Shown: positions 11,344-58,044 of the stretch, piece after piece
Position numbering within the stretch: the first letter of the stretch is position 1
How the letters are laid out: each line of letters opens with the position of its first letter
Translations under genes and position numbers: made by a program
The notes under the pieces: model-generated
The model's database searches: none
What the model saw: only the letters and a program-made list of their open reading frames with translations
What the model was told of the DNA's origin: nothing
Assembly (NCBI RefSeq): GCF_053078305.1
Contig: NZ_CP166879.1
DNA: 64,000 bases
Reading direction: 5' to 3' (one strand)

Positions 11344-13392
11344 TCAGAAGGATATTCTTACATTAGCCCAGTAACGACGTCCTTCATCGACCTGCCAGTT
11401 ACCATCAATGGTATCGATATCTTCGCTCTTTCTGTCTGTGACGTTAAGTACGGCAAAATTAATCAGCGTGCCTGGCAGGAACTGGTAATTCATACCAATA
11501 TCCATAGAAGTGAATCCATTACGAACACGGGGAACCTTGGCACCATTTCTTTGTGCTGCCCAGATTTGTTTTCCTGTATAATTCAGAGATGAATAAAATG
11601 TAATATCCTGAGTGTAATCCCATTCCAGTTTTGCATTGGCTGCATGTCTGGGAGTTCTTTCCAGAGGTTCCCCTTTCAGCGACTTGCCATTGAGACTTTC
11701 GTCATCGCTTTCTCGACGGGAGTCAGTGAATGTATAGTTTGCAGATACACGCCATTTATCATACACAGGAATCTGAGTTGCAAGCTCCACACCTCTGATA
11801 TTTGCCTCACCCACATTATCATAAATAAAAGTGTTTAGCCCAGTGACTGGATCTTTTGTGCCTATATCGTAACTGGTCAGCTTATTTTTAAAATCTGTAT
11901 TAAACAGAGTCGCGCTTGCTGAAAAACCACTGTCATTATTATAAATAATACCGATCTCTTCGGTTACACTGGTCTCCGGTTTCAGGTCCCTGTTTCCATA
12001 CATAATAGAGGCACCACCCTGCGTCAGTGTTCCAAATCCAGGACTGACCTCACGAATCGAAGGGGCCCGAAATGCTTTTGCGATCCCTCCTTTGAGAGTG
12101 AGATTATCGGTCAGGTTATAAACAGCATACAATCTTGGATTCCAGTAACTGCCATAGATTTCATGGTTATCGAGGCGCAACCCTCCAGTCAGGGCGAGAG
12201 AATCCGTTGCAGCATATTCATTTTCTATAAAAACAGCTTTCTGTTTAACTGAAACAGACTGTGTTTCTGTCGTTTTTTTACCTGTGGCTGAGTCATCACG
12301 GAGTTCTGCATGCTGAAATTGACCTCCGATGGTCAGCACATTTTCCGGCAGAAATGCCGTCACTTTTGCATCTATGATCGTGTTGGTTATTTCCGGTTTT
12401 CTTGACTCGTAATTAAGATCCCAATGATTATATTTATCTTTTTTACCAGATTTAACCTCACGAATAACTTTCTCCTGATAAACAGCAATTTCAGGATGCA
12501 GTATTTCGCCCTGGGCATTCCATGCTGCTACCCAGTGACTACGTGAGTTATGTGTTTCTCTTTTACTGTTTGGTTGTTTAAGATTTCCCCGCATAGTCCA
12601 GGCATCAAGAGAATCACCAGGTGTTAATGTATGTTCCTGGTTATTTTTTCCGTATTCAAAAACAAACTTCTGGCTTTCAGTCGGAGTAAACTGGAGTGTT
12701 GCCGTTATATTCTTATTATCTTTTGCTGGTGTTCCCTGAGAGATACTATCTTCCTTGCGATAGTTCATTCCTCCATATAACTGAAGACCAAGTTTATCCT
12801 TAACCAATGGGCCTGACAGGTAGAAGTCATTCGTGGTTGAGTTACCAAATTTCCCATGTTCCTGAATAATTCCCCCAAGCCCAAGTACGCCATCCCATGT
12901 CTGGTTATTAACAGGTTTGGTTATGATATTAATAACTCCTCCGATAGCATCGGAACCATACAGGGAAGACATAGGGCCACGTATAACTTCAATACGCTCA
13001 ATTGCTTCCACAGGAGGGATAAATCCGGCTTCAAAACCGCCGCTGCCGTTTGGTCTGGATTCCCGACCACTCTGACGTCGTCCATCGACCAGAATCAATG
13101 TATAATCGCCACTTAACCCACGTATACTGATATCCGGTTTTTCATTCCCACCGGTGATACTAATCCCTTCAACATCTTTTACCGCATCGACCAGGTCTGA
13201 AACCGGTTTTTTTTGCAGTTGCTCTGAAGTAATGACTGAAACACTGGCCGGTGCATTTCTGAGTTGCTGAGTGAAGCCGGAGGCAGTAACAACAAGCGTA
13301 TCTTCTTTTTTATCAGAACTGGCATAACCTGATGATATGACTGCAGAACATATCACGGCAATGCCCGGAGCAATGATATATTTGTTCTTCAT
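11344..13392 (-). CDS. ireA: TonB-dependent outer membrane siderophore receptor, IreA-like
   Basis: 682 aa from ATG at 13392 (RBS AAGGGA); signal peptide, plug and beta-barrel features, C-terminal aromatic residue; N-terminus matches my recollection of E. coli IreA; Fur box upstream. Confidence 0.8.
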   Translation of the reverse strand: MKNKYIIAPGIAVICSAVISSGYASSDKKEDTLVVTASGFTQQLRNAPASVSVITSEQLQKKPVSDLVDAVKDVEGISITGGNEKPDISIRGLSGDYTLILVDGRRQSGRESRPNGSGGFEAGFIPPVEAIERIEVIRGPMSSLYGSDAIGGVINIITKPVNNQTWDGVLGLGGIIQEHGKFGNSTTNDFYLSGPLVKDKLGLQLYGGMNYRKEDSISQGTPAKDNKNITATLQFTPTESQKFVFEYGKNNQEHTLTPGDSLDAWTMRGNLKQPNSKRETHNSRSHWVAAWNAQGEILHPEIAVYQEKVIREVKSGKKDKYNHWDLNYESRKPEITNTIIDAKVTAFLPENVLTIGGQFQHAELRDDSATGKKTTETQSVSVKQKAVFIENEYAATDSLALTGGLRLDNHEIYGSYWNPRLYAVYNLTDNLTLKGGIAKAFRAPSIREVSPGFGTLTQGGASIMYGNRDLKPETSVTEEIGIIYNNDSGFSASATLFNTDFKNKLTSYDIGTKDPVTGLNTFIYDNVGEANIRGVELATQIPVYDKWRVSANYTFTDSRRESDDESLNGKSLKGEPLERTPRHAANAKLEWDYTQDITFYSSLNYTGKQIWAAQRNGAKVPRVRNGFTSMDIGMNYQFLPGTLINFAVLNVTDRKSEDIDTIDGNWQVDEGRRYWANVRISF

Positions 13393-18625: not shown

Positions 18626-18637
18626 GCTGGGGGCGAT

Positions 18638-19894: not shown

Positions 19895-19907
19895 TATTTT
19901 GATGACA

Positions 19908-21853: not shown

Positions 21854-21883
21854 GACCGTTTTTATAATGCGGTCAGGATTTTT

Positions 21884-22656: not shown

Positions 22657-22708
22657 AACAGGCGTCCACTAGTTTGAAAAGGTGGGCACCTACGTTACCA
22701 ATACTGGC

Positions 22709-23003: not shown

Positions 23004-23045
23004 AGAAAACTAATAGTGCTATATGCAATTTTTAATATTCAGACT

Positions 23046-25727: not shown

Positions 25728-26235
25728 ATTCTCACTCAGTAATTATCATTTAACTTACGGAAAATTGTTATGAAACTCCCGATATTTACCCGGTAAAATA
25801 CTTGTCATTGTTTGAAGCCCTCCCTAAAAAATGACCAGGCATTTGATAACCCGGTGTATTTCTCCCGATATGAGCTCCGGAGGATTTTCCACAACTCCGG
25901 GTGTGTTAACATATTCCCGCCGGCCATATATACATTGAGTTCAGTCATAACAGTCAATACCAGGATTACAGGAACGCGATGCTGATACGCTGGTTATTGA
26001 ATACTGGTAGCCCCTAACTACTAATTCATCACGATACTCTGTACTTACTGTTTTTTACAACCATTCCCCCAGGTAAAAGAGTCCATTTATCATGCCCCTC
26101 TTTAACGCCTGCCAGCATAATTTAAGAATGGATACCGTGGGTGGAATTAACAATACCTGCTCAGGCCAATGCCATGTAACCGCCTCACTGAAAAAGCCAG
26201 ATCATCTAACCAGGTACAGACCAACATCGCAAAAA

Positions 26236-26385
26236 TTACCATGTAGCACGAACTGCTGTCATATTTCTGTTCAGGTATGCCGCTATTTCGCGGGTTTTCT
26301 TCACGCCATAATGCGTTTCAAGGTAGCGAACATCTTCGATTGTCCATGGTGTGCGCGCTCTTCCGGGGGTATTTTCCATTTCCAT
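26236..26385 (-). CDS. Small hypothetical protein (49 aa), possible DNA-binding protein; below the ORF-track length cutoff
   Basis: Own translation of the minus strand: MEMENTPGRARTPWTIEDVRYLETHYGVKKTREIAAYLNRNMTAVRATW; starts 15 nt downstream of the vasL-like stop; no homology support. Confidence 0.3.
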   Translation of the reverse strand: MEMENTPGRARTPWTIEDVRYLETHYGVKKTREIAAYLNRNMTAVRATW

Positions 26386-26400
26386 GTTTTATCTCAGCCA

Positions 26401-27765
26401 TTATGGCTGCCTCTCCTGATTGCCTGTGTGTTCCATCTGATAACGATTAATCAGCTGATTCAGTGCCATTTCAGCCTGTTTTTGCTGCTGTTCACTGCCA
26501 TTCTGATTACGGGCTTCATCATAGCGACGTAACTGCTCTTCTGCCGGGATATGCCGGTTAAAAGCCTGCATGATGCCAAACACCTCCGTTTTCAGTTCAC
26601 TGACCGTCATGTATTTTCCCCGCTGTTCATCCAGACGGTTCAGGCGCTCAGCCAGCTGCTGTAAGCGGGTCATGCCTTCGTTCCAGCCCGTCATCGCCTC
26701 TTCCGGAAGCGCTCGGCTCCTTACGCTCTTCTGCCAGTTATCCACCATTTCCTGAACACGGGGATTGTCGGGGAAAAGTCCCCTCAGTTGCTGCAGCAGC
26801 TGCGCACTGCGTTGCAGGTTGTATGCCGGCGGTAGTTCTGTCAGTCGCGTTATCTGCTGACCGGAAAGGGTTATCCACTCTGACGCATGATTTAACAGTG
26901 AGGGTGTTCTGCTGAGTTGCGCCATCTGGTCTGCTGAAAGCACATCCGGTAGTGGTGCCAGCAGCGCCCTGAGTTGCTGCTCCGCCGATGATGGCTGTGT
27001 CAGAAACTGCCATCCCGGAATGACCACGCTGACAGTCAGCAATGCCGCACAGACACCAGCCACAAACGGTTTCAGAAACGTGGGCGGGGATTTCTGAAGG
27101 GAGGGTGTGGGTTCTGCTTTTGTTTCAGAAACAACATACACCAGACGGGAGTACGGCAGGGGCTGATGTTCCTGTACATCCGGAGCATCAGACCGGAGTG
27201 CCTGAGCCGGAAGGGTTACCGGCGACGATACTTCACCCTGCACAGGCTGATTCTCCAGACGGGTGATATATCCCTTCACCATGGCTTCCGGTAAAGCCAC
27301 TTTACTGCTCTGTTTAAGTTCATGCCGGGCCAGTATGTCACTCAGCGTTTTCAGGCATGTTTCTGTCTGATACAGCAGGGGCAGATTGTCACGCTCATCC
27401 GGTGGCATGGCCCGGAGCGTTTTTTGCAGACGACTGAACAGACCGGTAATAATTTCCAGCCGGGCGTGGGTATTCAGCGGCCACATCACTGACCAGTGAT
27501 GCCGGGTCAGCGCCACAATCAGAGCCAGCCCTTCATTCAGACCACTTAACCCTGCTGTATGCATCCGGGCGATGGTGTACCAGGATACCGTCTGTAATTC
27601 CACGCCATTGTGTTCATACAGACGCAGGCAGAGCGTCTCCACATAACGCCAGTCCACATCCGGACGTGCCGGGTGAGTCAGCTTGCTGATTTCATCGCGC
27701 AGGGCAGCATAATCCGGTAATGACCGGGGGTCATTACCTGTTTTCAGTTTTACTTCAGAAGTCAT
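26401..27765 (-). CDS. T6SS-associated ImpA_N-domain membrane protein (VasL-like)
   Basis: 454 aa; N-terminal domain resembles the TssA N-terminus (DYAALRDEISKL...VSWYTIARMH versus TssA ...ATWYIWARL...) followed by one TM segment and a periplasmic region. Confidence 0.65.
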   Translation of the reverse strand: MTSEVKLKTGNDPRSLPDYAALRDEISKLTHPARPDVDWRYVETLCLRLYEHNGVELQTVSWYTIARMHTAGLSGLNEGLALIVALTRHHWSVMWPLNTHARLEIITGLFSRLQKTLRAMPPDERDNLPLLYQTETCLKTLSDILARHELKQSSKVALPEAMVKGYITRLENQPVQGEVSSPVTLPAQALRSDAPDVQEHQPLPYSRLVYVVSETKAEPTPSLQKSPPTFLKPFVAGVCAALLTVSVVIPGWQFLTQPSSAEQQLRALLAPLPDVLSADQMAQLSRTPSLLNHASEWITLSGQQITRLTELPPAYNLQRSAQLLQQLRGLFPDNPRVQEMVDNWQKSVRSRALPEEAMTGWNEGMTRLQQLAERLNRLDEQRGKYMTVSELKTEVFGIMQAFNRHIPAEEQLRRYDEARNQNGSEQQQKQAEMALNQLINRYQMEHTGNQERQP

Positions 27766-27819
27766 CGGCAGATTCAGTGTTGCTGTATCAAATCATAATT
27801 AATATTCCCGGAAAGAGCG

Positions 27820-28128
27820 TCAGTGTAATACCGGTACCCGGGAAAGGTATTCCACCGCACGGATGATTGCCGGTGTCACATCCCACCGCCGCTTCAGAAC
27901 CGCCAATAACTCACTGAGTGTTCTGATATAACGTTCAGTGAACAGTCGCTGCCCGTCCCTGGTTAAATGAAAACCGGACTGATTACAGGTAATGGTAATA
28001 TGGCAGGCATCATTACCAATATATACGGCTTCCTGTGGCCTGAATCTGACATTCCAGTGCCAGGAATACGGAGCATGATTCAGATAAAAAAGGCGCATCT
28101 GGATGTCATTAAATAACGGGTTCATCAT
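27820..28128 (-). CDS. Hypothetical protein within the T6SS operon (102 aa)
   Basis: ATG start; between tssE and the vasL-like gene; no recognisable motif. Confidence 0.5.
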   Translation of the reverse strand: MMNPLFNDIQMRLFYLNHAPYSWHWNVRFRPQEAVYIGNDACHITITCNQSGFHLTRDGQRLFTERYIRTLSELLAVLKRRWDVTPAIIRAVEYLSRVPVLH

Positions 28129-41476: not shown

Positions 41477-43992
41477 TCTGTTTCTCCATGAATTTTTACC
41501 TTCCCAAACTCAACTTTTACTACTGACGGAATGGAGGTGTTGACTGGCGCTGTTTTACCATTTTCATCGGTGATCCCCTGTAGAATATCACCTTCAGCCG
41601 TTGTTAATCGATAAGGCGTCGAAGGTTGCGGCACTCCCGCTTCATCGGTAAGAATAAAACCGCCACCAAACCCTCGCGGCATTTCAACAGACGCAATATC
41701 AAGACTTGTTGGTCCCATCTTCTGCATATTCGTGCTTTTTAACAGGATCTGTCCCGGGCATCCCAGCTCAATATTTCCACCGCTTAGTTTGATATAAGCT
41801 CCACCACATGCCAGTATCAGTTCCTGATTAGCAGAAACAGTCACTTTGCCCTCAGAACTTTGAATATCAAGATTCTGTTGGGAACTCATTGACAAATCGT
41901 CACTTTGAGCCTGAATATTTACCCGCCCTTTTGCTGCTAACAGTTGCATCCCCTGGTTTCTGCTCAACAGGCTAACAGCACCTTCTGCTACAACTGTAAA
42001 TGACTGCCCGGCACTAATATCAGTGTTATCTCCCGACATTATGCCCACGCTTTCACTACCCGAAGCAATTCGTAACGCCCGTGCACTAACCATGCCAATC
42101 CCATCAGGAGCATGCAACAGCATTCCCGGCGCAGTGAGATCTGTTAGCGATGAATTCAACCGTTGCTGACAACTTATATCTCCCTGAGTAGCATTTGCAG
42201 CAGTTGCGGCCTTCGCCATACTTCGGGCCAGAGATAATGCCAGCTCCAGTTGGCGGATAGCTTCATTCATATCCAGCATCTTTCCTTGTGCCTGAGGCTG
42301 CATATCTGCACTGATAAATATTCCTTTTCCTCCCCGGATACTTATCCAGTCATCAGTCCTCAGCTCAGCGCCTTCTCCCCTGAGTTTCCGGGAGGCATTA
42401 ACGTTATGACCAAGATTAAGTTGTGTCTTACCGCCAAACTCGGTACTGATCTTGATATGCTCCTCACCGCGTTTGTCCTCCATCCGCAACTTGTTATTTG
42501 CCGGCGTACGGATAACATTGCGCGTACCGTTCTTATCGGTAACGTGATCAACATGACGTGAATCATGCAGGGCATGCGCGATATAGGGGCGATCCGGATC
42601 ACCTTCCTCAAAGGCAATGGCCACTTCCGTTCCCTGAATCAGCGGAAAATGAAAACCATAAGCATCACCACTGTAGGGTTTGGCCAGACGTACCGGCATG
42701 CTTTCCTGTCCCGGATTTTTATCATCACGGTCAGCATCAAATTTCACCCGGTACATACCTGATGCATCCTGCCAGGCGTAGATATCCCCTTCTTTTGCAC
42801 TGGTCACACGGGCCGTCATGGTACCGGTAACTTTCGGACGCGGCAGTAAAGGAGGACGCCAGCAGATAACTTCACTGTAAGGAACGCCCTTCAGTACAAC
42901 CTGCAGGGCATCCTTGCGACTTGCAGAAAAACCGACACAGGTAAGCAACACCGGATTGCGCAGCAGCGCAGGCAACGTCGGCGGAAGACTGTCGGTGATA
43001 GTCAGAACCTGAGCAGGTGCCAGCGTGGCGTCTGTACTGTTGCCGGTTATCCGCACCTGCTCCGCCAGATAACGTTCATGACCAAGGCGGGCATAAAAAT
43101 TGGCCGTCTCCGGCACCGGGTCGATTTTATCCCCCCGTTCCAGATGACGGAAATGGTAGTGGTACACCTCACCATAGTTAATTCCGTCACCATCACCATG
43201 CGTCATGTCTGCCGGGGCGGACTGCAACAGATATTGTGCTTCACGATGGTTATAAGCCTTTGTGGTGACACTGGCCTCTGCCACATTGTGCGTCACATTC
43301 AGCCCCCACACTGAATCCGCTCTGTTATCATTCATTCCGGACGGACTGTTTATCGCCAGCGTCTTATCAAACGTCAGCGCAGCCTGGCTGTCACCAAAAT
43401 GCACTACTTCCGTCTGCGTGTCCGGTTGCAGGGTGAAAAAATAAAAAATCCCCACTTCAGCCAGCAAACGCTGAATAAATTGCAGGTCACTTTCCTGATA
43501 CTGGTTAATTTGTTCACGCTTCGGATACGTTTTTTTGAGACGGAACTCAAACTCCCAGCCTTTCAGGCCGTGCTCCTGGAGAACCTCTGTCACCACCTCC
43601 GGCACCGATTTGTTAACGAAAAATCGGTGAGAACGATGCTGCCTGTCCAGTAGTTTAATAAATGGTTCCAGTATCACCTGGTATTTTGCCTGGTCGGCGG
43701 AGCCCGATATACGACGAAAATCTGTAATGACACCATGTACTACTTTCTGGCTCACCTGCTCCTTAAGCCCTCCCGTACCCATTGTAAATGTGGCTGATTT
43801 ACGCAGCAGCAGCCCGGCATCCAGGTCGTTGTCAGTACTGGTAAAATTGATGATGTAATAATAGGTCTGACTCATCTCCTCCCTGCCGCTGAAATGCTCA
43901 ACATCCAGTGGTGACGGGCAGGAGGGAATAATTAAATGGTAACGATTCAGGGAAGCAGAGATAGTTTTTGAAAGTGTATCTGTCAGACTCAT
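41473..43992 (-). CDS. vgrG: T6SS spike protein VgrG with C-terminal extension
   Basis: 839 aa; GGAG RBS; longer than the ~650-aa core, consistent with a C-terminal effector-binding extension. Confidence 0.9.
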   Translation of the reverse strand: MSLTDTLSKTISASLNRYHLIIPSCPSPLDVEHFSGREEMSQTYYYIINFTSTDNDLDAGLLLRKSATFTMGTGGLKEQVSQKVVHGVITDFRRISGSADQAKYQVILEPFIKLLDRQHRSHRFFVNKSVPEVVTEVLQEHGLKGWEFEFRLKKTYPKREQINQYQESDLQFIQRLLAEVGIFYFFTLQPDTQTEVVHFGDSQAALTFDKTLAINSPSGMNDNRADSVWGLNVTHNVAEASVTTKAYNHREAQYLLQSAPADMTHGDGDGINYGEVYHYHFRHLERGDKIDPVPETANFYARLGHERYLAEQVRITGNSTDATLAPAQVLTITDSLPPTLPALLRNPVLLTCVGFSASRKDALQVVLKGVPYSEVICWRPPLLPRPKVTGTMTARVTSAKEGDIYAWQDASGMYRVKFDADRDDKNPGQESMPVRLAKPYSGDAYGFHFPLIQGTEVAIAFEEGDPDRPYIAHALHDSRHVDHVTDKNGTRNVIRTPANNKLRMEDKRGEEHIKISTEFGGKTQLNLGHNVNASRKLRGEGAELRTDDWISIRGGKGIFISADMQPQAQGKMLDMNEAIRQLELALSLARSMAKAATAANATQGDISCQQRLNSSLTDLTAPGMLLHAPDGIGMVSARALRIASGSESVGIMSGDNTDISAGQSFTVVAEGAVSLLSRNQGMQLLAAKGRVNIQAQSDDLSMSSQQNLDIQSSEGKVTVSANQELILACGGAYIKLSGGNIELGCPGQILLKSTNMQKMGPTSLDIASVEMPRGFGGGFILTDEAGVPQPSTPYRLTTAEGDILQGITDENGKTAPVNTSIPSVVKVEFGKVKIHGETE

Positions 43993-44070
43993 ATTGTTAA
44001 CTCCATGTCTGTACCGGTATTGAACTGCAATTATATAATGATGACCGTTAAGCTTTATTTTCAGAGAGAA

Positions 44071-44298
44071 TTACTGATAATCATCCCATTCATCGTAAAT
44101 ATATGCATATGCAAATCGATACATCAGATAACCGACAAAAAATAACGCAACAGAGAGCCCTCCCCACAGATATTTAAATTCAGCAGATGAGAGAAAAAAG
44201 AACCAGACTGTAAATACAATACCCGACGCACCTAACCCCATACCTGCGCCACGGATAAATCGGGAAAGCATTATAAGTAATGTTCTTTTTATCTTCAT
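44071..44298 (-). CDS. Small two-TM membrane protein (75 aa), unknown; possible immunity protein
   Basis: Internal ATG at 44298 overlaps the stop of the upstream gene (ATGA); hydrophobic (GMGLGASGIVFTVWFFFL, LSVALFFVGYLMYRF); AT-rich. Confidence 0.5.
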   Translation of the reverse strand: MKIKRTLLIMLSRFIRGAGMGLGASGIVFTVWFFFLSSAEFKYLWGGLSVALFFVGYLMYRFAYAYIYDEWDDYQ

Positions 44299-44936
44299 AA
44301 ACCACCGAAAAAATATTCGCATATCCGGTCAAACTCAGCCGAATTTCGGTCTGCGACAATACAGGCTCGTTCAAACGGGCGCACAATATCTTCAACAAGA
44401 AAGTACAAAAGATCCAAATCCCCCTGAGCTTTCAGCTTATCATGCAACACCGGATTTCTGTCTTTCAGAAAACGGGATGTGTAAATCGCACGCGATGTCT
44501 CTGCGCCAACAGATAATAACAACCCGGCAAAACTCCCTGCAAAAAAAGCAGCCAGCCCTCTGGATACCAGAACCTCTCCCAGTTTAACCCCGGTCAATTC
44601 AGCAAATGCCATTCTACCTGCCAGATCTCCTGAAACGTTCTTCACAATGGAGCCTGTTTTTTCCATATTGATCCGGGATACAAAGTCTTCAAGACAAATA
44701 CTGATAATTTTCCCAATAATATCACGGCTGAAAATGCCTTTTTCTACCAGTCTGGCCATTCTGAATTTGTCATTCTGGTTTTCCCGCCTATGCCCGGTAT
44801 CTATAAAATCATATCCCATATAACCGAGACTGACTGGCAAAGATATGAGTCCCTTCCCGACGGCCCCCAGAAACCCATCCCCATTAATATTTACGGCCTC
44901 CAGCATATCCCGGGCAATTTCTTTAGCACTGTCCAT
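44295..44936 (-). CDS. Hypothetical protein (213 aa) between clpV and vgrG, unknown function
   Basis: ATG at 44936 chosen just downstream of the clpV stop; AT-rich; no recognised domain. Confidence 0.5.
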   Translation of the reverse strand: MDSAKEIARDMLEAVNINGDGFLGAVGKGLISLPVSLGYMGYDFIDTGHRRENQNDKFRMARLVEKGIFSRDIIGKIISICLEDFVSRINMEKTGSIVKNVSGDLAGRMAFAELTGVKLGEVLVSRGLAAFFAGSFAGLLLSVGAETSRAIYTSRFLKDRNPVLHDKLKAQGDLDLLYFLVEDIVRPFERACIVADRNSAEFDRICEYFFGGL

Positions 44937-47610
44937 ATATGCTTTCCTGCGGATAATCGCTATTGATTCCATCAAACGCTATCACAATACCATCCTCATC
45001 ATTCCACGTCAGAGACAGGTACGTCGGATGCTGTCTGGCAGCAAGATAGCTGAGCAACTGCCGGCTCAGTACCGGCAGCAGTTGCTGGTTCAGCAGACTC
45101 TCCACATTCCGGGCGCCCGTATCCGGCAGCAGGCAGGCGGATGTCAGGGCATCGTACACACGTTCATCAACCGATGTGCTCAGCCCATAATGGCAGTGCA
45201 GGCGTTCGCAGACCTGTGCAAGCTTCATCTCCACAATGGTGCGCATGGCAGACTGCGTCAGCGGACGGTAAATCACGGTCCGGAAACGGGCAAGCAGTGC
45301 TGGCTGGAAGTGGTCGCGCAGCAGTGGACGGATAAGCTCATGCAGCTCCGATTCCGTTGTCTCCGGCTTTTCGCTAAGTTGCTGCATCAGAAGGTCACTG
45401 CCCAGATTGGAGGTCATCAGAATGACCGTATTACGGAAGTCAATTTCACGCCCCTCACCGTCGCGCATAAAGCCCCGGTCAAACACCTGGTAGAACAGAT
45501 TCAGCACATCCCGGTGGGCCTTTTCCACTTCATCCAGCAGCACCACGCTGTAAGGGCGTTTACGCACAGCCTCCGTCAGAATACCGCCCTGACCGTATCC
45601 CACGTACCCGGGCGGTGACCCCTTAAGCTGGGAAACCGTATGGGGCTCCTGGTATTCCGACAGATTGATGGTAATCAGTGATTTTTCGCCGCCGTACATC
45701 ACGTCTGCCAGCGCCAGTGCCGTTTCGGTTTTTCCCACACCACTGGGACCGACCAGCAGGAACACCCCCTGGGGGCCGTTACCGGATGTCAGACCCGTTT
45801 TCGCCGCACGCAGACGCTGCGCAATGGATTCCAGTGCCACGTCCTGTCCGACCACCCGTCTGCCGATATCCTTTTCCAGATGCAGCAGTTCCGTCTGTTC
45901 GTCCTTCATCAGGGAAGATAACGGCACCCCGGTCCGGTCCGCGACCACACCGGCAACGGTGCGTACGTCAACATCCACACTGAGCAGGGGCTGATTCTGC
46001 TGAATGTCGTGCAGTGCCTGCTGCAGGTGATGTGTCTCACTCTGGCGGGAAATATCGCTGCGGCTTTCAAGTAACTCACCGGTGAGTTCGCACTCCCGGG
46101 CGTACTGCTGCTCCAGGTCATCACGTGCTGTCATCAGCTCGTTCTCTTCCTGCTCAATGGCAGACAGACGTTCGCCGTGATTCTGATGACCAACGGCAAT
46201 ATCTTCCAGCAGTGCCTGTTTTTCCATACCGAGGGAAGCGAGCTGTGAACGGATACGGGTCAGCTGTTCCGGCACCGTGTCGAGGCTCATACGCACACGG
46301 GCAGCAGCAGTATCGAGCAGGTCAACAGCCTTGTCCGGTAACTGGCGTTCTGTCAGATAACGGCGCGACAGCGTGACGGCAGCACGTACCGCCTCATCGG
46401 TGATATGCACGTTATGATGTTCCGCATAACGGGATTTCAGGGAGCGCAGCATCAGACAGGCCGTCTCATCATCCGGCTCGTCCACTCTGACCATCTGAAA
46501 ACGCCGCTCCAGAGCCGCGTCACGTTCCAGGTATTGTTTGTACTCAGACCAGGTGGTGGCGGCAATGGTACGCAGTTCACCCCGCGCCAGCGCAGGCTTC
46601 AGCAGGTTGGCCGCATCCGCGCCGCCGGCCTGATTACCGGCCCCGATAAGGGTATGGGCTTCATCTATAAACAACAGTACAGGAGCCGGTGACTGCTGCA
46701 CGGCATCAATCACGTTTTTCAGGCGCTGTTCAAATTCACCCTTCACGCCGGCACCGGCCTGCAGCAGGCCGAGGTCAAGGGTGCGCAGGGTGACGGGTCT
46801 GAGTGATTCCGGTACGTTACCTTCCGCAATACGCAGGGCGAGCCCTTCCACCAGAGCCGTTTTCCCCACACCAGGGTCCCCCACCAGAATCGGGTTGTTC
46901 TTGCGGCGGCGGGAGAGAATATCCACCATCTGACGGATTTCCGTATCGCGTCCCGATACCGGGTCAATTTTCCCCTCTCTCGCGCTGGCCGTGATGTCCC
47001 GGGTGAATTTATCCAGAGCACTCTGTAACACAGGCGGCAGGTCACCTGACGGTATACCCGCCGTATCCGCACCGACGGGACGCCCGATAAAGGTCACATT
47101 GTCTCCCTGAGGCAGCACAGGCTCTGCATCCTGTAATCTCTCCGGACACTCATCAGACTGCGCATCCAGCAGCGGGGACAGACGCTGCAACTGGCTATGA
47201 CTCAGTGTCAGCAGCGGCCACAGCCCGTCACAGCGAACCAGGTGCGGATTTTCCGTCAGGGCACCCAGCAGATGCACGCTGCGGATATGTTCTTCTCCCT
47301 GTAATGAGGCCACCATCCAGGCCTGTTTCAGCAGGGCATTCAGGGACGGCGCAAGCTGCGGGCAGCTGCGTACGCTACGGGGCTGGTTATCCAGCCAGCC
47401 GAGCAGCGACTGCCATATCGCGTCCATATCCCAGTCATAACGCCGGCCCAGCACGGTAAGGTCTCCTTCGCCCTGCTCCAGCAGTTTCAGTAACCAGTGC
47501 TCCGGGGTGATTTCCGCATGGGCCCGGGTCTGGCAAAGGGAGGCTGCGCCTTCCAGTGCACGGGCACAGTAATGATTAAGACGGCGTAACAGAGCTGCCG
47601 GATTTTCCAT
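44923..47610 (-). CDS. clpV: T6SS AAA+ ATPase ClpV (TssH)
   Basis: About 895 aa from the internal ATG (ORF-track start is GTG at 47619); two AAA+ modules with Walker A motifs GDPGVGKT and GPSGVGKT. Confidence 0.9.
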
Positions 47611-47730
47611 GTTATTCACTCACTGTCAGAAGACCTTCAGACACGCTACCGCCCTTCGCCATAACCCGGGCGCATCAGGTCTGTGTTCAGGACTGAGAAT
47701 TCTTTCTTCAGCACCCGCCAGCAGATACTG

Positions 47731-47770
47731 AAGAAAAAAGAAAAATGACGGACAGGATACCCTGCCCGTC
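47731..47770 (-). terminator. Stem-loop with U-tract between hcp and clpV (terminator or attenuator)
   Basis: Minus-strand GACGGGCAGG-GTAT-CCTGTCCGTC (one mismatch) followed by ATTTTTCTTTTTTCTT, directly after the hcp stop. Confidence 0.5.
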
Positions 47771-47778
47771 CGGGAGAA

Positions 47779-48270
47779 TTACGCAGTGGTACGTTCATTC
47801 CACGCGTCAGAATGAATGATGTTACCGTCCTTATAAGTCCAGGTGATTTTCTCGTAGCGCAGCTCCACCTGCTCAAGGTGGTTATGCTTCTCGTAGGCGG
47901 GATTCTTGATGTCGTGCATGACCGGGTTAACCTTCACCACCTTCACGTTCTCAAGCTTCGTATTGAAATACTCCACTTCCTGACCGGCATCATTGATTCT
48001 GTACCACTTAAACTCAGCAGACTTCAGGGTCTGCCCCGTGGTCACCGCCTTGTAAAGGTAGGGGCTGGAAGAATCAATTTCCTTGGTAAACAGGAACGGC
48101 GTGTGAATACGGGTACCGGTCAGCTTACCGGTATTGTTATCCGTCGGAATGTAAAGGCAGTGCTCCTGAGCCACCACTTCAATACTGCCCTCACGGTCCT
48201 TCACATCCACGGAGCCTTTAATATCCGCTCCGCCATCATCCTGCAGCCACAGATAAACAGGAATTGCCAT
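47779..48270 (-). CDS. hcp: T6SS tube protein Hcp
   Basis: 163 aa from ATG at 48270 (RBS GAGGGAG); MAIPVYLWLQDDGGADIKGSVDV... typical Hcp; the ORF-track 5' extension was rejected. Confidence 0.9.
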   Translation of the reverse strand: MAIPVYLWLQDDGGADIKGSVDVKDREGSIEVVAQEHCLYIPTDNNTGKLTGTRIHTPFLFTKEIDSSSPYLYKAVTTGQTLKSAEFKWYRINDAGQEVEYFNTKLENVKVVKVNPVMHDIKNPAYEKHNHLEQVELRYEKITWTYKDGNIIHSDAWNERTTA

Positions 48271-48304
48271 AAAGTTACTCCCTCTCGTTGTCTTACGCGC
48301 CCTG

Positions 48305-50005
48305 TTACGGCGCCCGGGTGATGTCCGGCAGACGACAGGCATCGGCCTGCGGTACCAGACTGATTTCAACACGGCGGTTACGCGCTCGCCCTTCCGCCGT
48401 CTCATTCGGAGCCACGGGACGACTCTCACCATATCCCTGTACGGCAAAACAGCTTTGAGGGATATCGCCCGTATCCCGCATCCAGTCGCGAACGGCCTCT
48501 GCGCGCTTCAGTGACAGGGCCTGGTTGCGCTGCGGGTCACCCGTATTGTCCGTGTGACCACTGACCACAATCAGCCAGCCCGCTTTTGCCTTAATATCCA
48601 CCAGGGCATTCACCAGCCATTTTGTGGCGCCCGGTTTCAGCGTCCATTTACCGGCATCAAACAGCGCCAGGCTGTTAAGGCGAACCGTTTTCGGCGTCTG
48701 AGTAACTTTCTGTATCACCGGACGGGGAGGCAGTGGTGCAACCCACTCACCAGTCGCTCGCTCAACCGGCGGTATCAGCCACATTCCCTGATACAATCCC
48801 AGTCCGTAACGCTGCGGCACACCATGTTGCTGCCAGTCGTTCAGTAACTGGCTGTCAGCCTGAAGACGTTGCAGTGCAGTTTTTTTCGATTCAGATGAAT
48901 ATCCGCGCATCCGGTGCCAGGCCGTCAGGTGTTCCCCCACACTGCGAACCAGTCGCTGGTTATTCATAAAAGACGCCAGCATAGCCAGCAGAAGAAAAAC
49001 ACCGACAATCAACCCCGTCTGGCGACAAAGTCTGTGCCAGTGACTGAGTCCTCGATGACGGGGGATACCGGACAGCAGAATATCCGGCAACGGCAGTACC
49101 TGTGATGACACGCCGGCAGACGGTGGCAGTGCAGTGAGGGACGTCAGTTGTTGTTGCCAGATATTACCGGGTCGGGCAGCAACCGACGTCAGACAGAATC
49201 CGACGGCAACCGGCCGGAAATAAAGGTGCTCCTGCCGGCAAATATCTGTCAGGGCATCAGTAACCCGGTTGTACCAGGACAACATGGCATTCAGCCATAA
49301 CAGTTCACTGACGCACCGGAGCCTGGACGCTGCATCACACGCCAGCAGCCATTCCTCTGCCGGAATGGCTCCGGCTTCCGTCAGGCGTATGTGCATTCCC
49401 GACAGGTCCGGTGTCAGTGAAAACCAGTGTGCAGAGTGCTTATTTAAGGATGTGTTTTGTGGTGACGGCCCTGAAACCATCAATGTCACCAGCACCGGCG
49501 GCATGGTATTCAGCCACTGCCGGCACTGCATGACTGCACGCTGCCAGTTCCGCAACCACGACAGGAAAGCTTCATCTGAGGTATGCTGCTCCGGTAAAAG
49601 TCCCAGCATGACCACGACCTGGCCACACAGGGCCGGACGGCTGTACGACAACCGCTCTGCCAGTATTCTCATCTGCTCCGGCGTATCCACACGAAGATAC
49701 CATCCCGATGCTGTTTCCCGGTATGCCTGACCGGGTTCGAACCACGCATCTGAGTTTCCGGCAACAAGCAGCACATGCCCCTGAAAATACTCAGGCGGCA
49801 GACCGTCATCGCCGGCATTCTCCGGGATATCACGACGGGAAGACAGACAACGCCACTGATACCACAGCACAAGCCCCGCCACCACGACTGAAACCAGGGT
49901 CAGTATTATCTGGTTTACTGCAGACAGTGGCAGGAATCCCGAAATCAGCCACAGTGTCAGGAACAGACTCAGTATTGTCAGCCAGAGACGGGAACGTACG
50001 TGCAT
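48305..50005 (-). CDS. tagL: T6SS accessory inner membrane protein with C-terminal OmpA/MotB-type peptidoglycan-binding domain (TagL-like)
   Basis: 566 aa from ATG at 50005; N-terminal TM segments; C-terminal OmpA-like motifs (VSGHTDNTGDPQRNQALSLKRAEAV, NRRVEISL). Confidence 0.7.
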   Translation of the reverse strand: MHVRSRLWLTILSLFLTLWLISGFLPLSAVNQIILTLVSVVVAGLVLWYQWRCLSSRRDIPENAGDDGLPPEYFQGHVLLVAGNSDAWFEPGQAYRETASGWYLRVDTPEQMRILAERLSYSRPALCGQVVVMLGLLPEQHTSDEAFLSWLRNWQRAVMQCRQWLNTMPPVLVTLMVSGPSPQNTSLNKHSAHWFSLTPDLSGMHIRLTEAGAIPAEEWLLACDAASRLRCVSELLWLNAMLSWYNRVTDALTDICRQEHLYFRPVAVGFCLTSVAARPGNIWQQQLTSLTALPPSAGVSSQVLPLPDILLSGIPRHRGLSHWHRLCRQTGLIVGVFLLLAMLASFMNNQRLVRSVGEHLTAWHRMRGYSSESKKTALQRLQADSQLLNDWQQHGVPQRYGLGLYQGMWLIPPVERATGEWVAPLPPRPVIQKVTQTPKTVRLNSLALFDAGKWTLKPGATKWLVNALVDIKAKAGWLIVVSGHTDNTGDPQRNQALSLKRAEAVRDWMRDTGDIPQSCFAVQGYGESRPVAPNETAEGRARNRRVEISLVPQADACRLPDITRAP

Positions 50006-50007
50006 GG

Positions 50008-50661
50008 TTATCCCTGCCCGGTAAGCCGTGCCACCTGGTCTGCGAGCACAGAAGAAAGCACACACCAGAGACCAGCCAGCGTCATAATACCCGCCACCCA
50101 TGACAACCAGTACATCGTTCTGCCAGCACGGTACCCCGGTGCACGCACCACCACCGGCGCATCCTGTGCGAAAGTAAATGCAGGAACACGCGCTGTCAGT
50201 GCGCGTATTACATCTTCGCGACGCTCATCATCCTGCGACCGGTACTGACCGGTAAAACCGAGCTGAAGCGTACGGCAGAGGCATGTCAGTACCGCCACAT
50301 CCGGCGCTGGTAATTTCAGTTGCTCACGAATACGCTCCCAGAGCTCTTCACCGGCATTGAGCGTACCAAAAAAATGAGCCTGCAGCGGGTCCTGCTGCCA
50401 GGTGTGCCAGCCATCGTCTGTTTTTTCGCGGTTCAGCACACTCTCGTCCAGCAGGGCACAGAAGGCATACAACATGGTGTCACTGTTTTCCTGACTGAAT
50501 CCTGCTTCGGCCAGCTCTTCACGCGCCTGCGTCACCAGCTGACAGGCACGGCGATACAGGGCCTTACCATCCTCAACCGGTTGTCCGCTGCGCAGCTGGC
50601 AGACCATCAGCCAGCCGGGATAAAAAATCTGTTCAGCCCGGGAAATAACTGGTTTATTCAT
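50008..50661 (-). CDS. tssL: T6SS membrane complex protein TssL (DotU-like)
   Basis: 217 aa from ATG at 50661, overlapping the tssK stop (ATGA); C-terminal TM anchor. Confidence 0.85.
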   Translation of the reverse strand: MNKPVISRAEQIFYPGWLMVCQLRSGQPVEDGKALYRRACQLVTQAREELAEAGFSQENSDTMLYAFCALLDESVLNREKTDDGWHTWQQDPLQAHFFGTLNAGEELWERIREQLKLPAPDVAVLTCLCRTLQLGFTGQYRSQDDERREDVIRALTARVPAFTFAQDAPVVVRAPGYRAGRTMYWLSWVAGIMTLAGLWCVLSSVLADQVARLTGQG

Positions 50662-51995
50662 GTCCGCAGCACCGCAAAAAGTTCCAGTTTCACATCTCCC
50701 AGCGATGCCGGGGTGTAGAAAGTACAACGCCCCGCGTCCAGCATCGCCCGGGCCGCATCCGTACTTAAATCCAGCGCGAAATACTGGTTTTCCAGCCGGA
50801 GCGGAATGGCCGCCGGTACATGCGTAACCGGACGGATAATGACCCCGCTCAGCGCCACATTCACCACCTCAGACACATCATCGGGGCTCCCGGCTTTGCA
50901 TAGCTGCGGAAACTTCGTCTGCAGTTCATGCCCGGGCATGGAAGAGCGCACTGAAAGCCAGAAATCCGCTCCTTCGCGCAGGCGCGCATCGTGTAATGCC
51001 CCCTCCCACATCACACCTTTTTGTTTCAGTTCAATGAAGACCACACGGGAAGGCAGGCTTGCCTCCAGCAGCTGGTTCAGCAAAGAAAGCAAGGGTGGAA
51101 ACACATTTTCAGGTGTTTCATGACGGTATGCCGGAACCGCATCCACATTATGCTCAAGCGAGAATGTGAGCAGGGAGCCTGCCAGCCGGGCAAGCTCCCT
51201 GTACAACAGTTCCGGGTGGCGGTAAGGCATGTCAAGCAACTCTTTCAGAACAGGCTCCGCACTGTTCAGGGCATTCAGCAACCAGAACAACGACACGTCC
51301 GCCACTGCAAAATCCGCAAGACGGGCATTGTTCTCCCGACGCATGGACATCAGTCGCTGGCGACGCGCCTGCAGGTGATGAAGCAACTCCGCAAGCTCAG
51401 TCATCAGCGAAGGACTGGCAGACAGCGTCAGCAGAGGGGGAATAAAACGCGGGTCCCTGCACCACTGTCCCTGTGCATCACGAACAAGACGGGTAACGGG
51501 ACAGGTCAGCCAGGCAGCATTTTCCTGATGAGCCATGCGCAGAGTCAGGTTATGCCGCAATACCGCCACTTCGCTTTGCTCATGCCCGGCCAGCTCCTGC
51601 ACATTCACCCTTTCTGATTTCCAGCGACGCGGACGCCCGCTCTCACGGCCATCATCAAGGTTGCCACCGTTAGCATTCAGTAACGGTAGCGCCAGCACAA
51701 TATCCACCAGGGAACGATCAGAAACCGTCGATAAATCACAGACCGGAGGCAGATTATCCGCACGTTCCGTATCAATAAGCGTTCCGTCCGGGAAACGAAC
51801 AATCAGACGGGTGGCATTCAACCGTGAAAGCGGTAACAGAGAGTCATCAAACTCTGCAGCCACCACGCCCCAGGGATGCGCCAGCCCCATTCGGGCAACG
51901 CTGTCTGCCAGATGAACATCCCAGGCAGCCTGCTGCTGAAACTGCTGGGGCATCAGAAAAGCCCCGTCTTCCCACAGTGGACGATAAATCTTCAT
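50658..51995 (-). CDS. tssK: T6SS baseplate protein TssK
   Basis: 445 aa; position between tssC and tssL. Confidence 0.85.
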   Translation of the reverse strand: MKIYRPLWEDGAFLMPQQFQQQAAWDVHLADSVARMGLAHPWGVVAAEFDDSLLPLSRLNATRLIVRFPDGTLIDTERADNLPPVCDLSTVSDRSLVDIVLALPLLNANGGNLDDGRESGRPRRWKSERVNVQELAGHEQSEVAVLRHNLTLRMAHQENAAWLTCPVTRLVRDAQGQWCRDPRFIPPLLTLSASPSLMTELAELLHHLQARRQRLMSMRRENNARLADFAVADVSLFWLLNALNSAEPVLKELLDMPYRHPELLYRELARLAGSLLTFSLEHNVDAVPAYRHETPENVFPPLLSLLNQLLEASLPSRVVFIELKQKGVMWEGALHDARLREGADFWLSVRSSMPGHELQTKFPQLCKAGSPDDVSEVVNVALSGVIIRPVTHVPAAIPLRLENQYFALDLSTDAARAMLDAGRCTFYTPASLGDVKLELFAVLRT

Positions 51996-53575: not shown

Positions 53576-54073
53576 TCACACCTGTTCCGGCACCAGTGCA
53601 CTCAGTTCGTCACGTAAGGCCTGACTCAGTTCGGGATCCCGCAGAATTTTTTCCAGTTCTTTACGGAAAGTGGCGTTATCCAGCAGATTCGCCTTCAGAT
53701 CCCGCAGAAGGCTGCGCATGGCCAGCATGGCTTTAAGACGGGGAATTTGTCGGGCGATCTGCTCTGGCGTGAAGTCGTTCATATTGCGGAAAGTCAGGCT
53801 GATGCTTTCTTCAGAGCCATCACCGGCAAGCGTGTTCTCCACATTCAGGCGTACTGACGGCGAGATATCAGCCAGAACAGCATTAAAGTTATTTTTATTA
53901 ACATCCATTTTTATGCGCTCTGACAGCGGGCGCTCTTCCTGTCCGTTACTGAAATCACCGGCAACCAGCAGTTTGAGCGGAAGCTCCACTTTCTTCTGCC
54001 CACCACCTGTATGTAGGTCTAATTTCAGATTCACCCTTGCCTTCGGGATCTCATTCTGAAACGAACTGCTCAT
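53576..54073 (-). CDS. tssB: T6SS sheath small subunit TssB (VipA)
   Basis: 165 aa from ATG at 54073 with AGGAG RBS; the ORF-track start at 54097 has no RBS. Confidence 0.9.
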   Translation of the reverse strand: MSSSFQNEIPKARVNLKLDLHTGGGQKKVELPLKLLVAGDFSNGQEERPLSERIKMDVNKNNFNAVLADISPSVRLNVENTLAGDGSEESISLTFRNMNDFTPEQIARQIPRLKAMLAMRSLLRDLKANLLDNATFRKELEKILRDPELSQALRDELSALVPEQV

Positions 54074-54167
54074 GACGTTCTCCTGTGAAACCTGCATCCC
54101 AGGGAGCCCATCGCCACAGAAGGCCTCCCCTTGTGCACTGATTTAATTTCACCCATTATAGGACGAA

Positions 54168-54226
54168 GATCTGCAAATTCTCAATATGACAGACATATCG
54201 ATCGTTTTAATGCCAATAACCAGATC
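54168..54226. promoter_or_regulatory. Cluster of three GATC (Dam) sites in the AT-rich region upstream of tssB, candidate T6SS promoter control region
   Basis: GATC at 54168, 54200 and 54223 within 60 bp, about 100-150 bp upstream of the tssB start. Confidence 0.35.
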
Positions 54227-54571
54227 TTTATTCTGATACATATCACAAAATCAGCATTTATCAAAACTTATATCCAGGAGTAATACAAAAATGCAGAAAA
54301 TTATTCCGGTTAGTGCTTTTGATACAGATGGTTATACCGAATGATTACCAGCAATGACATTCACGAGGAGTGATGATTCGGCAGCATTTAAGGGCATATC
54401 AGAAAAAGAGAAGGACATGAAAGAGGAGAGCAATAAAAGACACGGAAAATAAAGAAGAGAGAGAAAATATTTTTTAAAAACAGAAAATTAACAACGCACA
54501 TCAGGAAACGTCGTCTCCTGATTCAGTGATACCACATGAAAATTTAGTGAACGGTTACCGTTCTGAAGTCT

Positions 54572-54781
54572 ATGTCAGAAGATATTCCATTACCAAAAAT
54601 CAATCAGCGATACAGAGACGATCATGGCGCGCTTGTCACCGTGACCAGTGTTGAGGAAACCCGGGTGGTGTTTATGCGGGACGGCTATCCGCATCCCTGC
54701 ATGCGGCCGATGTACAACTTCCTGGGAAAATTCAAACCCGAACCCCGGAAAGAACCCCCTGCCGGCAATCACACTGCCTGA
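54572..54781 (+). CDS. Small hypothetical protein (69 aa)
   Basis: ORF only; no motif recognised. Confidence 0.4.
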   Translation: MSEDIPLPKINQRYRDDHGALVTVTSVEETRVVFMRDGYPHPCMRPMYNFLGKFKPEPRKEPPAGNHTA

Positions 54782-54800
54782 TGGCAGCATAATCCACTTA

Positions 54801-55034
54801 TTAATTCTCATCCCCGGAGACAAGCCCAGAAAACCACTCCGGGTGTTCACTGTATGCCGTGTTCAGCGCATCCCAGGAAACGTTGATATAAAAGCTGTCC
54901 TGCAATTTGCGGGTAACAATTTCTGCCACCCGGTTACGGTTATCCGCCTGTCCGGCATAACCTCTCTCTGCCAGCCACTCATTCAGTTCATGTTCCGGAG
55001 ACAGATTGATAATATCGTAATCGGACCTTGCCAT
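54801..55034 (-). CDS. Small hypothetical protein (77 aa)
   Basis: ORF only; acidic, no motif recognised. Confidence 0.4.
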   Translation of the reverse strand: MARSDYDIINLSPEHELNEWLAERGYAGQADNRNRVAEIVTRKLQDSFYINVSWDALNTAYSEHPEWFSGLVSGDEN

Positions 55035-56344: not shown

Positions 56345-56789
56345 GAAATGTTCCTTTTCAACCCCTGTTGAATTTTGTCAAGCCGGTGCAGACACAGTAA
56401 AGCGCGCATCAACACCTGAAAGGTACGATACAAACACAAGTTACAAACAATAAGAACGGAAGGACAATTAATCAGTGAGGAATAATAACTAAATTAACCA
56501 AAAGAATGTTACTGACAATACTACCAATACTTAAATAGCAATATATTAATTAATGTAAGAACAGATGCCCGGTAAGACATATACACAATACATCCACAAA
56601 CACACTCTTTTCATTAAATCAATCACCTGATTAAACCATGAAAGTGTGATGTAAGTCAAAATTACTGACACTATCAATTGATAATGATTATCTCTATCAT
56701 TATCGTGAAATTCGAGAATGAAAGGAGAAGTAGTCATTATAAGCCTTTTATAAATCGTCATCATCATAGTAAAGTAGAACACTTTTTAT

Positions 56790-57260
56790 ATGAGTTACTA
56801 TATGAAAATATACTGGACAAGAAAACGCATTCCTGAACTTTCAGCACTTCCACCTTCATTAAGAAAGAAAAATTTTACTGACGCATATAATGCAGCATCT
56901 TCTCATATCGAATACTGGATAGGTGCTGGCGTCTCATTTATCTCGATGATGATTTTATCCAGAGTATATGACTTTCTTTTACCCGCCCAAGATACTTTCC
57001 CGGGTGATATCATCAGAAGTTTATGTGTTGTGTGTCCATCCATATTAATCTGGTTTCAGTTTTCGGTATATGTCATGAGGAAATATTACAGACATATTCT
57101 GGTGCGAGGAAAAGAAACCGAAACCATTTCAGAAAGGTTGATACGTGAGGCTGATACACGAGAATATGAACTATGGCGTCCGGTCCGTCGCTTTTTCTCC
57201 ATTATTTTTCTCATTATTCTATTAGTTTGCATTCATTCACTGATAACAACTATAAAATAA
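56790..57260 (+). CDS. Integral membrane protein of unknown function in the microcin locus (156 aa)
   Basis: Predicted TM segments (VSFISMMILSRVY, LCVVCPSILIWFQFSVYV, FFSIIFLIILLVCIHSLI); AT-rich. Confidence 0.5.
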   Translation: MSYYMKIYWTRKRIPELSALPPSLRKKNFTDAYNAASSHIEYWIGAGVSFISMMILSRVYDFLLPAQDTFPGDIIRSLCVVCPSILIWFQFSVYVMRKYYRHILVRGKETETISERLIREADTREYELWRPVRRFFSIIFLIILLVCIHSLITTIK

Positions 57261-57357: not shown

Positions 57358-58044
57358 ATGGAAATAACAAAAAATAAAAATGCAACTATAAAAAAACAGT
57401 CATCAGTCGGCTGCTTTTCAATGTTTACCTTATCATTTTCTATTACCTTTATTCCTGTATTCCTTACAAACAGGCAGGAACTTATATCCAGGGGACTTCT
57501 TGTTCCAGCATTATTTCTTGCTGAATTTCTAATTCTTGTTCCACTGTATTTTATTTTCTTCCGAAAAAGAGAAGGATTAGGAAGAGGCTCTTTTCGACTG
57601 GATGTTTTTTTTACTCTTTTCTCTTTAATAATGATTATTCAGTTATTTGTCCCTTATCTGCTGGCAGTGAGGAAAACGGAAGAATGGATGATCTCGCAAA
57701 TGTCTTTTTCCGGGGCCATTTTATGGATTAATATATTTTCTTCCGTACTTCTTGTTCCTGTATATGAAGAGATTGTATTTCGAGGGTGTCTTTTTAACTC
57801 TTTTAAATTCTGGTTTAATGACAATATTTACATCTCTGCTATTGTAACATCAGTCATATTTTCTGCATTACATCTACAATATACTGACTTTCGTACATTT
57901 TTGATGCTCTTTCTGATATCGTTAGTTCTTATCAGTGCAAAAATAAAGTCGAATGGCCTGTTAATGCCCATATTACTTCACATGGCGATGAATGCAGTCA
58001 TAACAGGAATACAATATACGTTACAATATCACATAACAGTCTGA
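57358..58044 (+). CDS. CPBP-family (CAAX protease / Abi) intramembrane metalloprotease, MceF/McmM-like microcin accessory protein
   Basis: 228 aa; the three CPBP motifs are present (YEEIVFRG, FSALHLQY, LHMAMNAV); polytopic. Confidence 0.8.
   Translation: MEITKNKNATIKKQSSVGCFSMFTLSFSITFIPVFLTNRQELISRGLLVPALFLAEFLILVPLYFIFFRKREGLGRGSFRLDVFFTLFSLIMIIQLFVPYLLAVRKTEEWMISQMSFSGAILWINIFSSVLLVPVYEEIVFRGCLFNSFKFWFNDNIYISAIVTSVIFSALHLQYTDFRTFLMLFLISLVLISAKIKSNGLLMPILLHMAMNAVITGIQYTLQYHITV

Follow-up and report, generated by a model that had tools for sequence, protein, structure and literature searches.

The 498-bp intergenic region upstream of tssB in the stretch analyzed here (64,000 nucleotides of contig NZ_CP166879.1, assembly GCF_053078305.1; hereafter the window) holds the orthologue of the main sci1 promoter of EAEC, which drives tssB and the downstream T6SS genes. 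We give a probability of about 60% to the reading that the window carries a natural variant of this promoter in which the Fur/Dam switch has decayed, so that expression would depend less on iron and be more uniformly ON than in EAEC. We see in it an allelic form of an established system, not a novel mechanism; a first-pass annotation of this region had the locus and the literature right, but the element that defines the switch is missing.

The sci1 (T6SS-1) promoter of EAEC is controlled by iron, through Fur, and by Dam methylation (PMC3145626). In the model of Brunet et al. 2011 (PMC3145626), in which the promoter is represented by a 596-bp fragment upstream of sciH/tssB, the binding of Fur at box 1 (F1) occludes the -10 element and shields the first GATC site (GATC-I, G1) from Dam, while methylation of G1 keeps Fur off and stabilizes the ON state; the mechanism depends on the position of G1 within Fur box 1, over the -10. 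Taillefer et al. 2026 (PMC13262931) reported that the second Fur box (F2) and the third GATC (G3) dominate the ON/OFF heterogeneity in EAEC: mutating the Fur boxes leaves the promoter constitutively ON, mutating G3 locks it OFF, and G1 mutants are weaker but still heterogeneous. The switch sets the heritable proportion of ON and OFF cells in the population, a compromise between killing and retaliation, and it was proposed, with engineered mutants only, that promoter architecture is selected to tune this ratio (PMC13262931). In EAEC the ON/OFF split is roughly 60:40.

The first-pass annotation had identified the gene downstream of the region as tssB, in agreement with the match of its product to PF05591. 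The genes at this end of the cluster are the following:

53576..54073, minus strand: tssB, T6SS sheath small subunit, 165 aa (PF05591 T6SS_VipA, E 2.2e-52)
54079..54084, minus strand: RBS of tssB, AGGAGA, 5 nt upstream of the ATG, conserved in the nine-promoter alignment
54572..54781, plus strand: divergent DUF4222 gene (Pfam PF13973, E 7e-23)

tssB is the first gene of a sci1-type T6SS-1 cluster that is encoded on the minus strand and ends at tssE (~28178). It can be aligned to annotated tssB genes, among them that of E. coli 042, and this alignment together with the RBS sets its start at the ATG 54073-54071; the open reading frame list had 53576..54097, and the in-frame ATG at 54097 was ruled out as the start by the position of the RBS and by the same alignment. 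The earlier placement of the region of interest upstream of tssB, at 54098-54571, stands, except for its 5' boundary, given that the tssB ATG is at 54073 on the minus strand; the intergenic region is 54074-54571 (498 bp, 38% GC). The cluster had also been described as homologous to the sci-1 type, and it is indeed colinear with sci1 of E. coli 042 from tssB to tssE, with 91-98% identity over three segments:

042 locus (L005) 1-10170, window 55118-44981: 94% identity
042 locus (L005) 11352-16191, window 43930-39091: 91% identity
042 locus (L005) 16260-27890, window 39843-28213: 98% identity

All the open reading frames of the T6SS cluster in the window appear intact.

The orthology of the promoter was established through the published oligonucleotides. 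Four oligos from Table S1 of PMC3145626 (two cloning primers and two Fur-box inserts) match strain FDAARGOS_772 (L004) exactly; the promoter of E. coli 042 is of the same type, the oligos are exact there too, and its GATC spacings of 429, 32 and 17 bp are those of Figure S1 of PMC3145626. The window aligns with this EAEC-type reference over the whole Psci1 fragment, with ~78% identity, and its distance between the second and third GATC (G2 and G3) is 32 bp, as in Figure S1. With the oligos exact on the reference and the reference aligned end to end, the earlier proposal that the region is the homologue of the published Fur/Dam promoter is confirmed. In both loci the DUF4222 gene is divergent, the downstream order is tssB-tssC-tssK-tssL-tagL-hcp-clpV, the -35 and -10 elements are present, G2 and G3 are 32 bp apart, and a distal GATC is located inside the DUF4222 gene; in the window this gene holds the distal GATC at 54620 and the 5' cloning primer site of Psci1 with one mismatch. 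In contrast with EAEC, the window lacks G1 (GATCA is replaced by GGGTG), F1 is degraded and F2 is not recognisable; it also has an additional GATC 23 bp upstream of G3 that is absent from EAEC 042, a different 5'UTR haplotype, and a promoter that is only ~78% identical overall. The boxes are named here by the match counts given in the text of PMC3145626, that is, fur1 or F1 is the 13/19 box that lies over the -10 and the BclI site, and fur2 or F2 is the 11/19 box; the oligo names in Table S1 appear to be swapped relative to that text.

The only sigma-70-like promoter in 54000-54700, on the minus strand, consists of TTGAGA and TATAAT separated by an 18-nt spacer and agrees with the consensus at 11 of 12 positions. 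Its elements were compared in an alignment (A2) of nine promoters that includes 042, four members of the window clade and one T6SS-less O157 remnant. The name G4 is our own label for the upstream GATC that EAEC 042 does not have.

54155..54160, minus strand: -10 element TATAAT, within the run CTATAATG, invariant across the nine promoters
54179..54184, minus strand: -35 element TTGAGA, 18-nt spacer to the -10
54150..54154, minus strand: position of the lost GATC-I (G1), GATCA in EAEC and GGGTG in the window
54168..54171, no strand: GATC-II (G2), in AGATCT, inside the -35/-10 spacer, invariant in 9/9 promoters
54200..54203, no strand: GATC-III (G3), in ATCGATCG, 16 nt upstream of the -35, invariant in 9/9
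54223..54226, no strand: extra upstream GATC (G4), in AGATCT, sequence AAAGATCTG, present in 7/9
54142..54160, minus strand: degenerate homologue of Fur box 1 (F1), TATAATGGGTGAAATTAAA; TATAATGATCAAAATTAAA in EAEC; 10/19 versus 13/19 consensus matches
54206..54224, minus strand: homologue of EAEC Fur box 2 (F2), TCTGGTTATTGGCATTAAA; CCTGATTATTTGCATTATA in EAEC; 9/19 versus 11-12/19

The invariant runs around G2 (CAGATC, 6 nt) and G3 (CGATCGAT, 8 nt) are among the longest in the alignment, comparable only to the -10 region and to the block GGAATAATTT. With its 10 nt the latter, located at 54298..54307 on the minus strand, ~115 bp upstream of the -35, exceeds every other invariant run in length; its EAEC counterpart is in the 5' SspI fragment that was not shifted by Fur (PMC3145626). 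G4 is missing from 042, which reads AAAGTCCTG, and from the O157 remnant, which reads AAAGAACTG. In the window the F2 homologue shares its 5' edge with G4, and its 3' end is 2 nt from G3.

The site that defines the published switch is the one that has changed. In the alignments A1 and A2 the G1 region TATAATGATCAAAATT of EAEC corresponds to TATAATGGGTGAAATT in the window; on the 3' side of the -10 the window has TATAATGGGTG as opposed to TATAATGATCA in EAEC, and no GATC is present between 54050 and 54168. The central hexamer of F1 is thus GGGTGA in the window and GATCAA in EAEC. Among the nine promoters G1 is retained in five lineages and lost in the window, 2013C-3181, O22:H8 154 and OkiPb01677. 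According to PMC3145626, the adenine of GATC-I is a conserved base of the Fur consensus, and the thymine next to it makes contact with Fur; both are replaced in the window, and this is a stronger argument for the decay of Fur box 1 than the matrix scores given below.

Two further elements were observed at the distal end of the region. A perfect 7-1-7 palindrome, GAACGGTTACCGTTC, lies at 54549-54563, directly upstream of the DUF4222 start codon, and is imperfect in EAEC; ~50 nt upstream of it, at 54500-54522, there is a conserved inverted repeat, ATCAGGA...TCCTGAT, that can form a hairpin. Both may take part in the control of the divergent DUF4222 gene. An Rfam scan of 53900-54900 returned just two sub-threshold matches (E ~0.4), which were dismissed.

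The three GATC sites that had been noticed within 60 bp of the AT-rich region upstream of tssB are there (54168-54171, 54200-54203 and 54223-54226, spanning 59 bp, all in the intergenic region of 38% GC); according to the site alignment, however, they are G2, G3 and G4 and not the published G1 to G3. Their clustering was discarded as statistical evidence. The window has 116 GATC sites, against ~250-267 expected, and four triples within 60 bp (starting at 31836, 42546, 52535 and 54168); when 116 sites are placed at random under a uniform null, at least one such triple appears in 39% of trials, and the average GATC density of E. coli would predict ~five triples per 64 kb. Since the number of triples is ordinary, the meaning of these sites must rest on orthology and conservation. 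An inverted repeat formed by the G2 and G4 regions (54166-54186 and 54208-54228; 21 nt, 71% complementary) was likewise considered as an operator and rejected, given that both sites are the palindrome AGATCT, which explains most of the complementarity.

The distribution of GATC in the remainder of the window showed features of its own. Multi-kb blocks free of GATC are located at 44674-51715 and 31882-37527, both in the T6SS-1 operon, and also at 5468-11849. The block from tssK to clpV has 0 sites versus 24.0 expected and the tssM-tssA block 0 versus 18.2, with other 4-bp palindromes near expectation in the GATC-free T6SS blocks. In the genes of these blocks Asp codons are GAT 134 to GAC 58 in general and 2 to 28 before a codon that starts with C, and ATC follows a codon that ends in G in 0 of 39 cases; synonymous codon context actively avoids GATC in these T6SS genes. 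No such bias is seen in the adjacent genes tssB, tssC, vgrG, tle1, tssF and tssG. The deserts are present in EAEC 042 too (L005 3431-10335 and 18572-24222), the tssK-clpV block is poor in GATC in Salmonella (2 versus 27.6 expected) and Serratia (9 versus 31.1), and blocks of this kind were noted at L021 10001-17055 and L023 12962-17099.

With respect to Fur, the first-pass annotation had found no convincing box by eye and had suggested a scan with a position weight matrix. The text of the Fur information-theory model of Chen 2007 (PMC2189734) gives no site sequences, and for this reason we built our own matrix, symmetrised and 19 bp long (consensus GATAATGATAATCATTATC), from 12 iron-regulated promoter regions of K-12 (fepA-fes, fepD-entS, fepB-entC, fhuA, cirA, fecI, fecA, fhuF, tonB, exbB, fiu and ryhB), which obtain leave-one-out scores of 8.6-21.4 bits. 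With this matrix F1 scores 7.2 bits in EAEC 042 and its window homologue 4.1 bits; F2 scores 7.7 bits in 042 and its homologue -0.8 bits. In the tssB-proximal 200 bp no site exceeds 4.1 bits, whereas random sequence of matched composition reaches a maximum of 5.8 bits on average, and no canonical Fur box in the 8.6-21.4-bit range was found in the intergenic region, whose overall maximum is 8.2 bits (P = 0.41 versus shuffles). By consensus counting the proximal promoter reaches 10-11/19 at most, and many unrelated positions reach 11/19. The scan is therefore in line with the verdict by eye, and neither published box is recovered by it in the window. Among the nine promoters F1 is conserved in every sampled lineage but the window clade, F2 has a positive score only in the EAEC-042-type promoter, and the window clade is the sole sampled lineage without a Fur-like box in the proximal promoter. 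The EAEC boxes are proven by experiment and yet weak by matrix: their 7.2-7.7 bits are roughly what random AT-rich DNA attains, and low scores are therefore compatible with weak or cooperative binding of Fur at the window promoter.

The same matrix recognizes strong sites in other parts of the window. As a positive control, ireA (11344..13392, minus strand), which encodes a TonB-dependent siderophore receptor, has overlapping Fur sites of 17.9 and 13.6 bits at 13413-13437, 21-45 bp upstream of its ATG. Proven Fur sites in E. coli usually consist of overlapping sites 6 bp apart. Three overlapping sites with this spacing (13.2, 18.4 and 13.1 bits; GATAATGATTATCTCTATCATTATC) form an array at 56674-56704, which is a better Fur-site candidate than any at the T6SS promoter; it is located ~90 bp upstream of an unannotated 156-aa open reading frame (56790..57260, no Pfam match), which is followed by a gene for a CPBP/Rce1-like protease (57358..58044), and it is identical in O157:H7 Xuzhou21 (L003 3915-3945). 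A Fur-like site of 16.9 bits lies within vgrG, at 42645-42663, 45-100 bp from the GATC triple 42546, 42591 and 42597; it is also present in EAEC 042 (L005 12619) and could be a further internal regulatory site or due to chance. In the T6SS cluster of the window no GATC overlaps a Fur-like site of at least 6 bits.

In EAEC, P4532 reportedly has a Fur box, a GATC and a -10 element that overlap. It is cited as a second, internal Fur/GATC promoter of sci1 in PMC13262931. Upstream of EC042_4532, at L005:10612, we found a candidate site of 7.1 bits that contains TGATCA (ATTATTGCTGATCATTTTA) and is presumably the published P4532 site. The cluster of the window is of the same type; unlike 042, however, it lacks the segment that holds the candidate, since L005 10170-11352 has no counterpart in the cluster alignment. 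The corresponding interval, 43930-44981 between clpV and vgrG, carries other genes, including an open reading frame at 44295..44975, where the 042 segment carries EC042_4531/4532, and no Fur-like site overlapping a GATC was found in it.

The G1-less allele is not confined to this genome. A 40-nt query centred on the G1 site was searched in 5426 complete E. coli genomes, and the window allele was found exact in 23 of them, so that a sequencing error can be discarded. Exact matches to the EAEC allele were obtained in 101 genomes, including 042 and O104:H4, and another 61 have it with one or two mismatches. Humans, cattle and food are the main sources of the 23 carriers, many of which bear strain names of the STEC type. 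In some of them tssB is disrupted by an IS (2012EL-2448, OkiPb01677), whereas the cluster of the window is intact. The G1 substitution travels with a distinct 5'UTR haplotype, and strain 1105 combines the upstream haplotype of the window with an EAEC-type -10-proximal part; this mosaic suggests a recombination-like origin for the window G1 allele.

The DUF4222 gene and the promoter are present in 1590 of the 5426 genomes, and in ~1,370 of these no tssB follows the promoter; in ~205 genomes the promoter remains connected to the T6SS 5'UTR. In the tssB-less genomes homology ends at about window position 54138, just beyond F1, and the remnant, with -35, -10, F1 and G1-G3, spans window 54138-54640 (L003 6001-6508; L020 7001-7509). 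These numbers raised the idea that the promoter might serve a system other than the T6SS, which was rejected because in O157:H7 Xuzhou21 and MS14385 the two flanks of the T6SS cluster are still there, separated by IS elements; the tssB-less promoters are therefore remnants of T6SS deletion. Outside E. coli, the promoter pattern CTATAATGNNNNAAATTAARTCARTGCAC gave 0 matches in 100,044 species-representative genomes. The nearest clusters are those of Salmonella, Enterobacter and Serratia (TssK 80-87% identical), and their tssB upstream regions are not homologous and have no comparable GATC/Fur arrangement. For these two reasons the Fur/Dam promoter looks specific to E. coli.

What these differences mean for function we infer from the presence or absence of each site, the promoter elements and the orthology. 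Since G1, the one methylation site within the Fur operator, is replaced in this strain, we consider it probable that the published switch does not operate in the described form and is weakened or lost. In the variant, GGGT stands in place of the G1 site of Fur box 1, over the -10, F1 lacks its central hexamer and F2 is not recognisable. Fur would then no longer occlude the -10 efficiently, and the promoter would be weakly or not repressed by it; without a Fur-protected GATC neither an ON nor an OFF state could be locked. Compared with EAEC, iron would repress expression less and expression would be more uniform; the GATCs that remain would ordinarily be methylated, with a modulatory effect at most. 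The GGG that follows the -10 is similar to the discriminator that is optimal for sigma region 1.2, and in the window allele it would fit a stronger constitutive promoter. The iron- and methylation-dependent switch that the first-pass annotation considered plausible here is thus not favoured by the sequence, with GATC-I gone and both box homologues reduced in score.

Some observations sit less easily with decay, and part of them would be better explained if the Fur/Dam switch still worked, moved upstream. Fur would bind weakly or cooperatively at the F2 homologue, with a residual contribution of F1, and methylation of G3 and G4 would compete with it, giving iron-dependent ON/OFF heterogeneity with a different set point. 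The weak matrix scores of the verified EAEC boxes leave room for such binding, given that weak boxes can evidently work. In EAEC, heterogeneity is set mainly by F2 and G3 and not by G1, whose mutants are heterogeneous (PMC13262931); G2 and G3 are invariant in 9/9 promoters, in runs that are among the longest conserved, and the F2 homologue, adjoined by the perfectly conserved G3 at its 3' end, is now also flanked by G4, which overlaps its 5' end. In addition, the T6SS cluster is intact, and regulation of some kind is to be expected. We nonetheless regard a relocated switch as unlikely, given that the F2 homologue scores -0.8 and F1 4.1 bits, that the proximal 200 bp never rise above random expectation, and that, among the sampled lineages, both boxes are lacking in the window clade alone. 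Furthermore, a positive-scoring F2 is found in the EAEC-042-type promoter alone, which makes F2 look lineage-specific.

At the other extreme, the GATC cluster may be inert in this strain, a mixture of inherited and chance sites that are always methylated, with the T6SS controlled elsewhere, for instance through silencing of the AT-rich region by H-NS or post-transcriptionally. Three sites in 59 bp are ordinary (four such triples in the window, P = 0.39), and the promoter with G1-G3 is kept in more than 1000 T6SS-deleted genomes, where the sites persist with no T6SS to regulate. Nevertheless, G2 and G3 are in the most conserved runs of a region that is ~78% identical, and mutation of these sites alters expression in EAEC (PMC13262931). 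Inert sites seem to us quite improbable; the idea overlaps with the decay of the switch, which also predicts little switching, and differs from it only by denying a modulatory effect.

The promoter also shares some traits with other systems under Dam control. In agn43 (OxyR/Dam) and pap (Lrp/Dam), whose common concept, discussed in PMC3145626, is the competition of a regulator with Dam, promoter GATCs are clustered and the operon encodes cell-surface or secretion machinery, as it does here. Unlike in the window, where no regulator site overlapping G2-G4 was identified, their GATCs sit inside regulator sites. A methylome paper on APEC (PMC11963381) cites the switch and contains no data on this promoter.

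The Fur/Dam switch of EAEC sci1 is among the few epigenetic controls of a bacterial weapon that have been dissected. The window provides a natural allele with an intact T6SS, without a Fur-protected GATC or recognisable Fur boxes, in which G2 and G3 are kept perfectly, and hence a ready test case for the idea that selection acts on promoter architecture (PMC13262931). It also calls for caution in the use of homology, which alone is insufficient to transfer a regulatory model: the GATC trio of the window resembles the published trio, but the sites differ. On the grounds that G1 and F1 are lost at the main promoter, that F2 is not found and that the segment with the candidate internal promoter is absent, we tentatively suggest that a clade composed mostly of STEC strains (23/5426) may have uncoupled its T6SS-1 from iron sensing and from Fur/Dam heterogeneity, either in favour of uniform expression or with G2-G3-G4 serving another methylation-sensitive regulator. 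If true, this clade-wide uncoupling would put to a natural test the 2026 proposal, in which promoter architecture is selected to tune the ON/OFF ratio.
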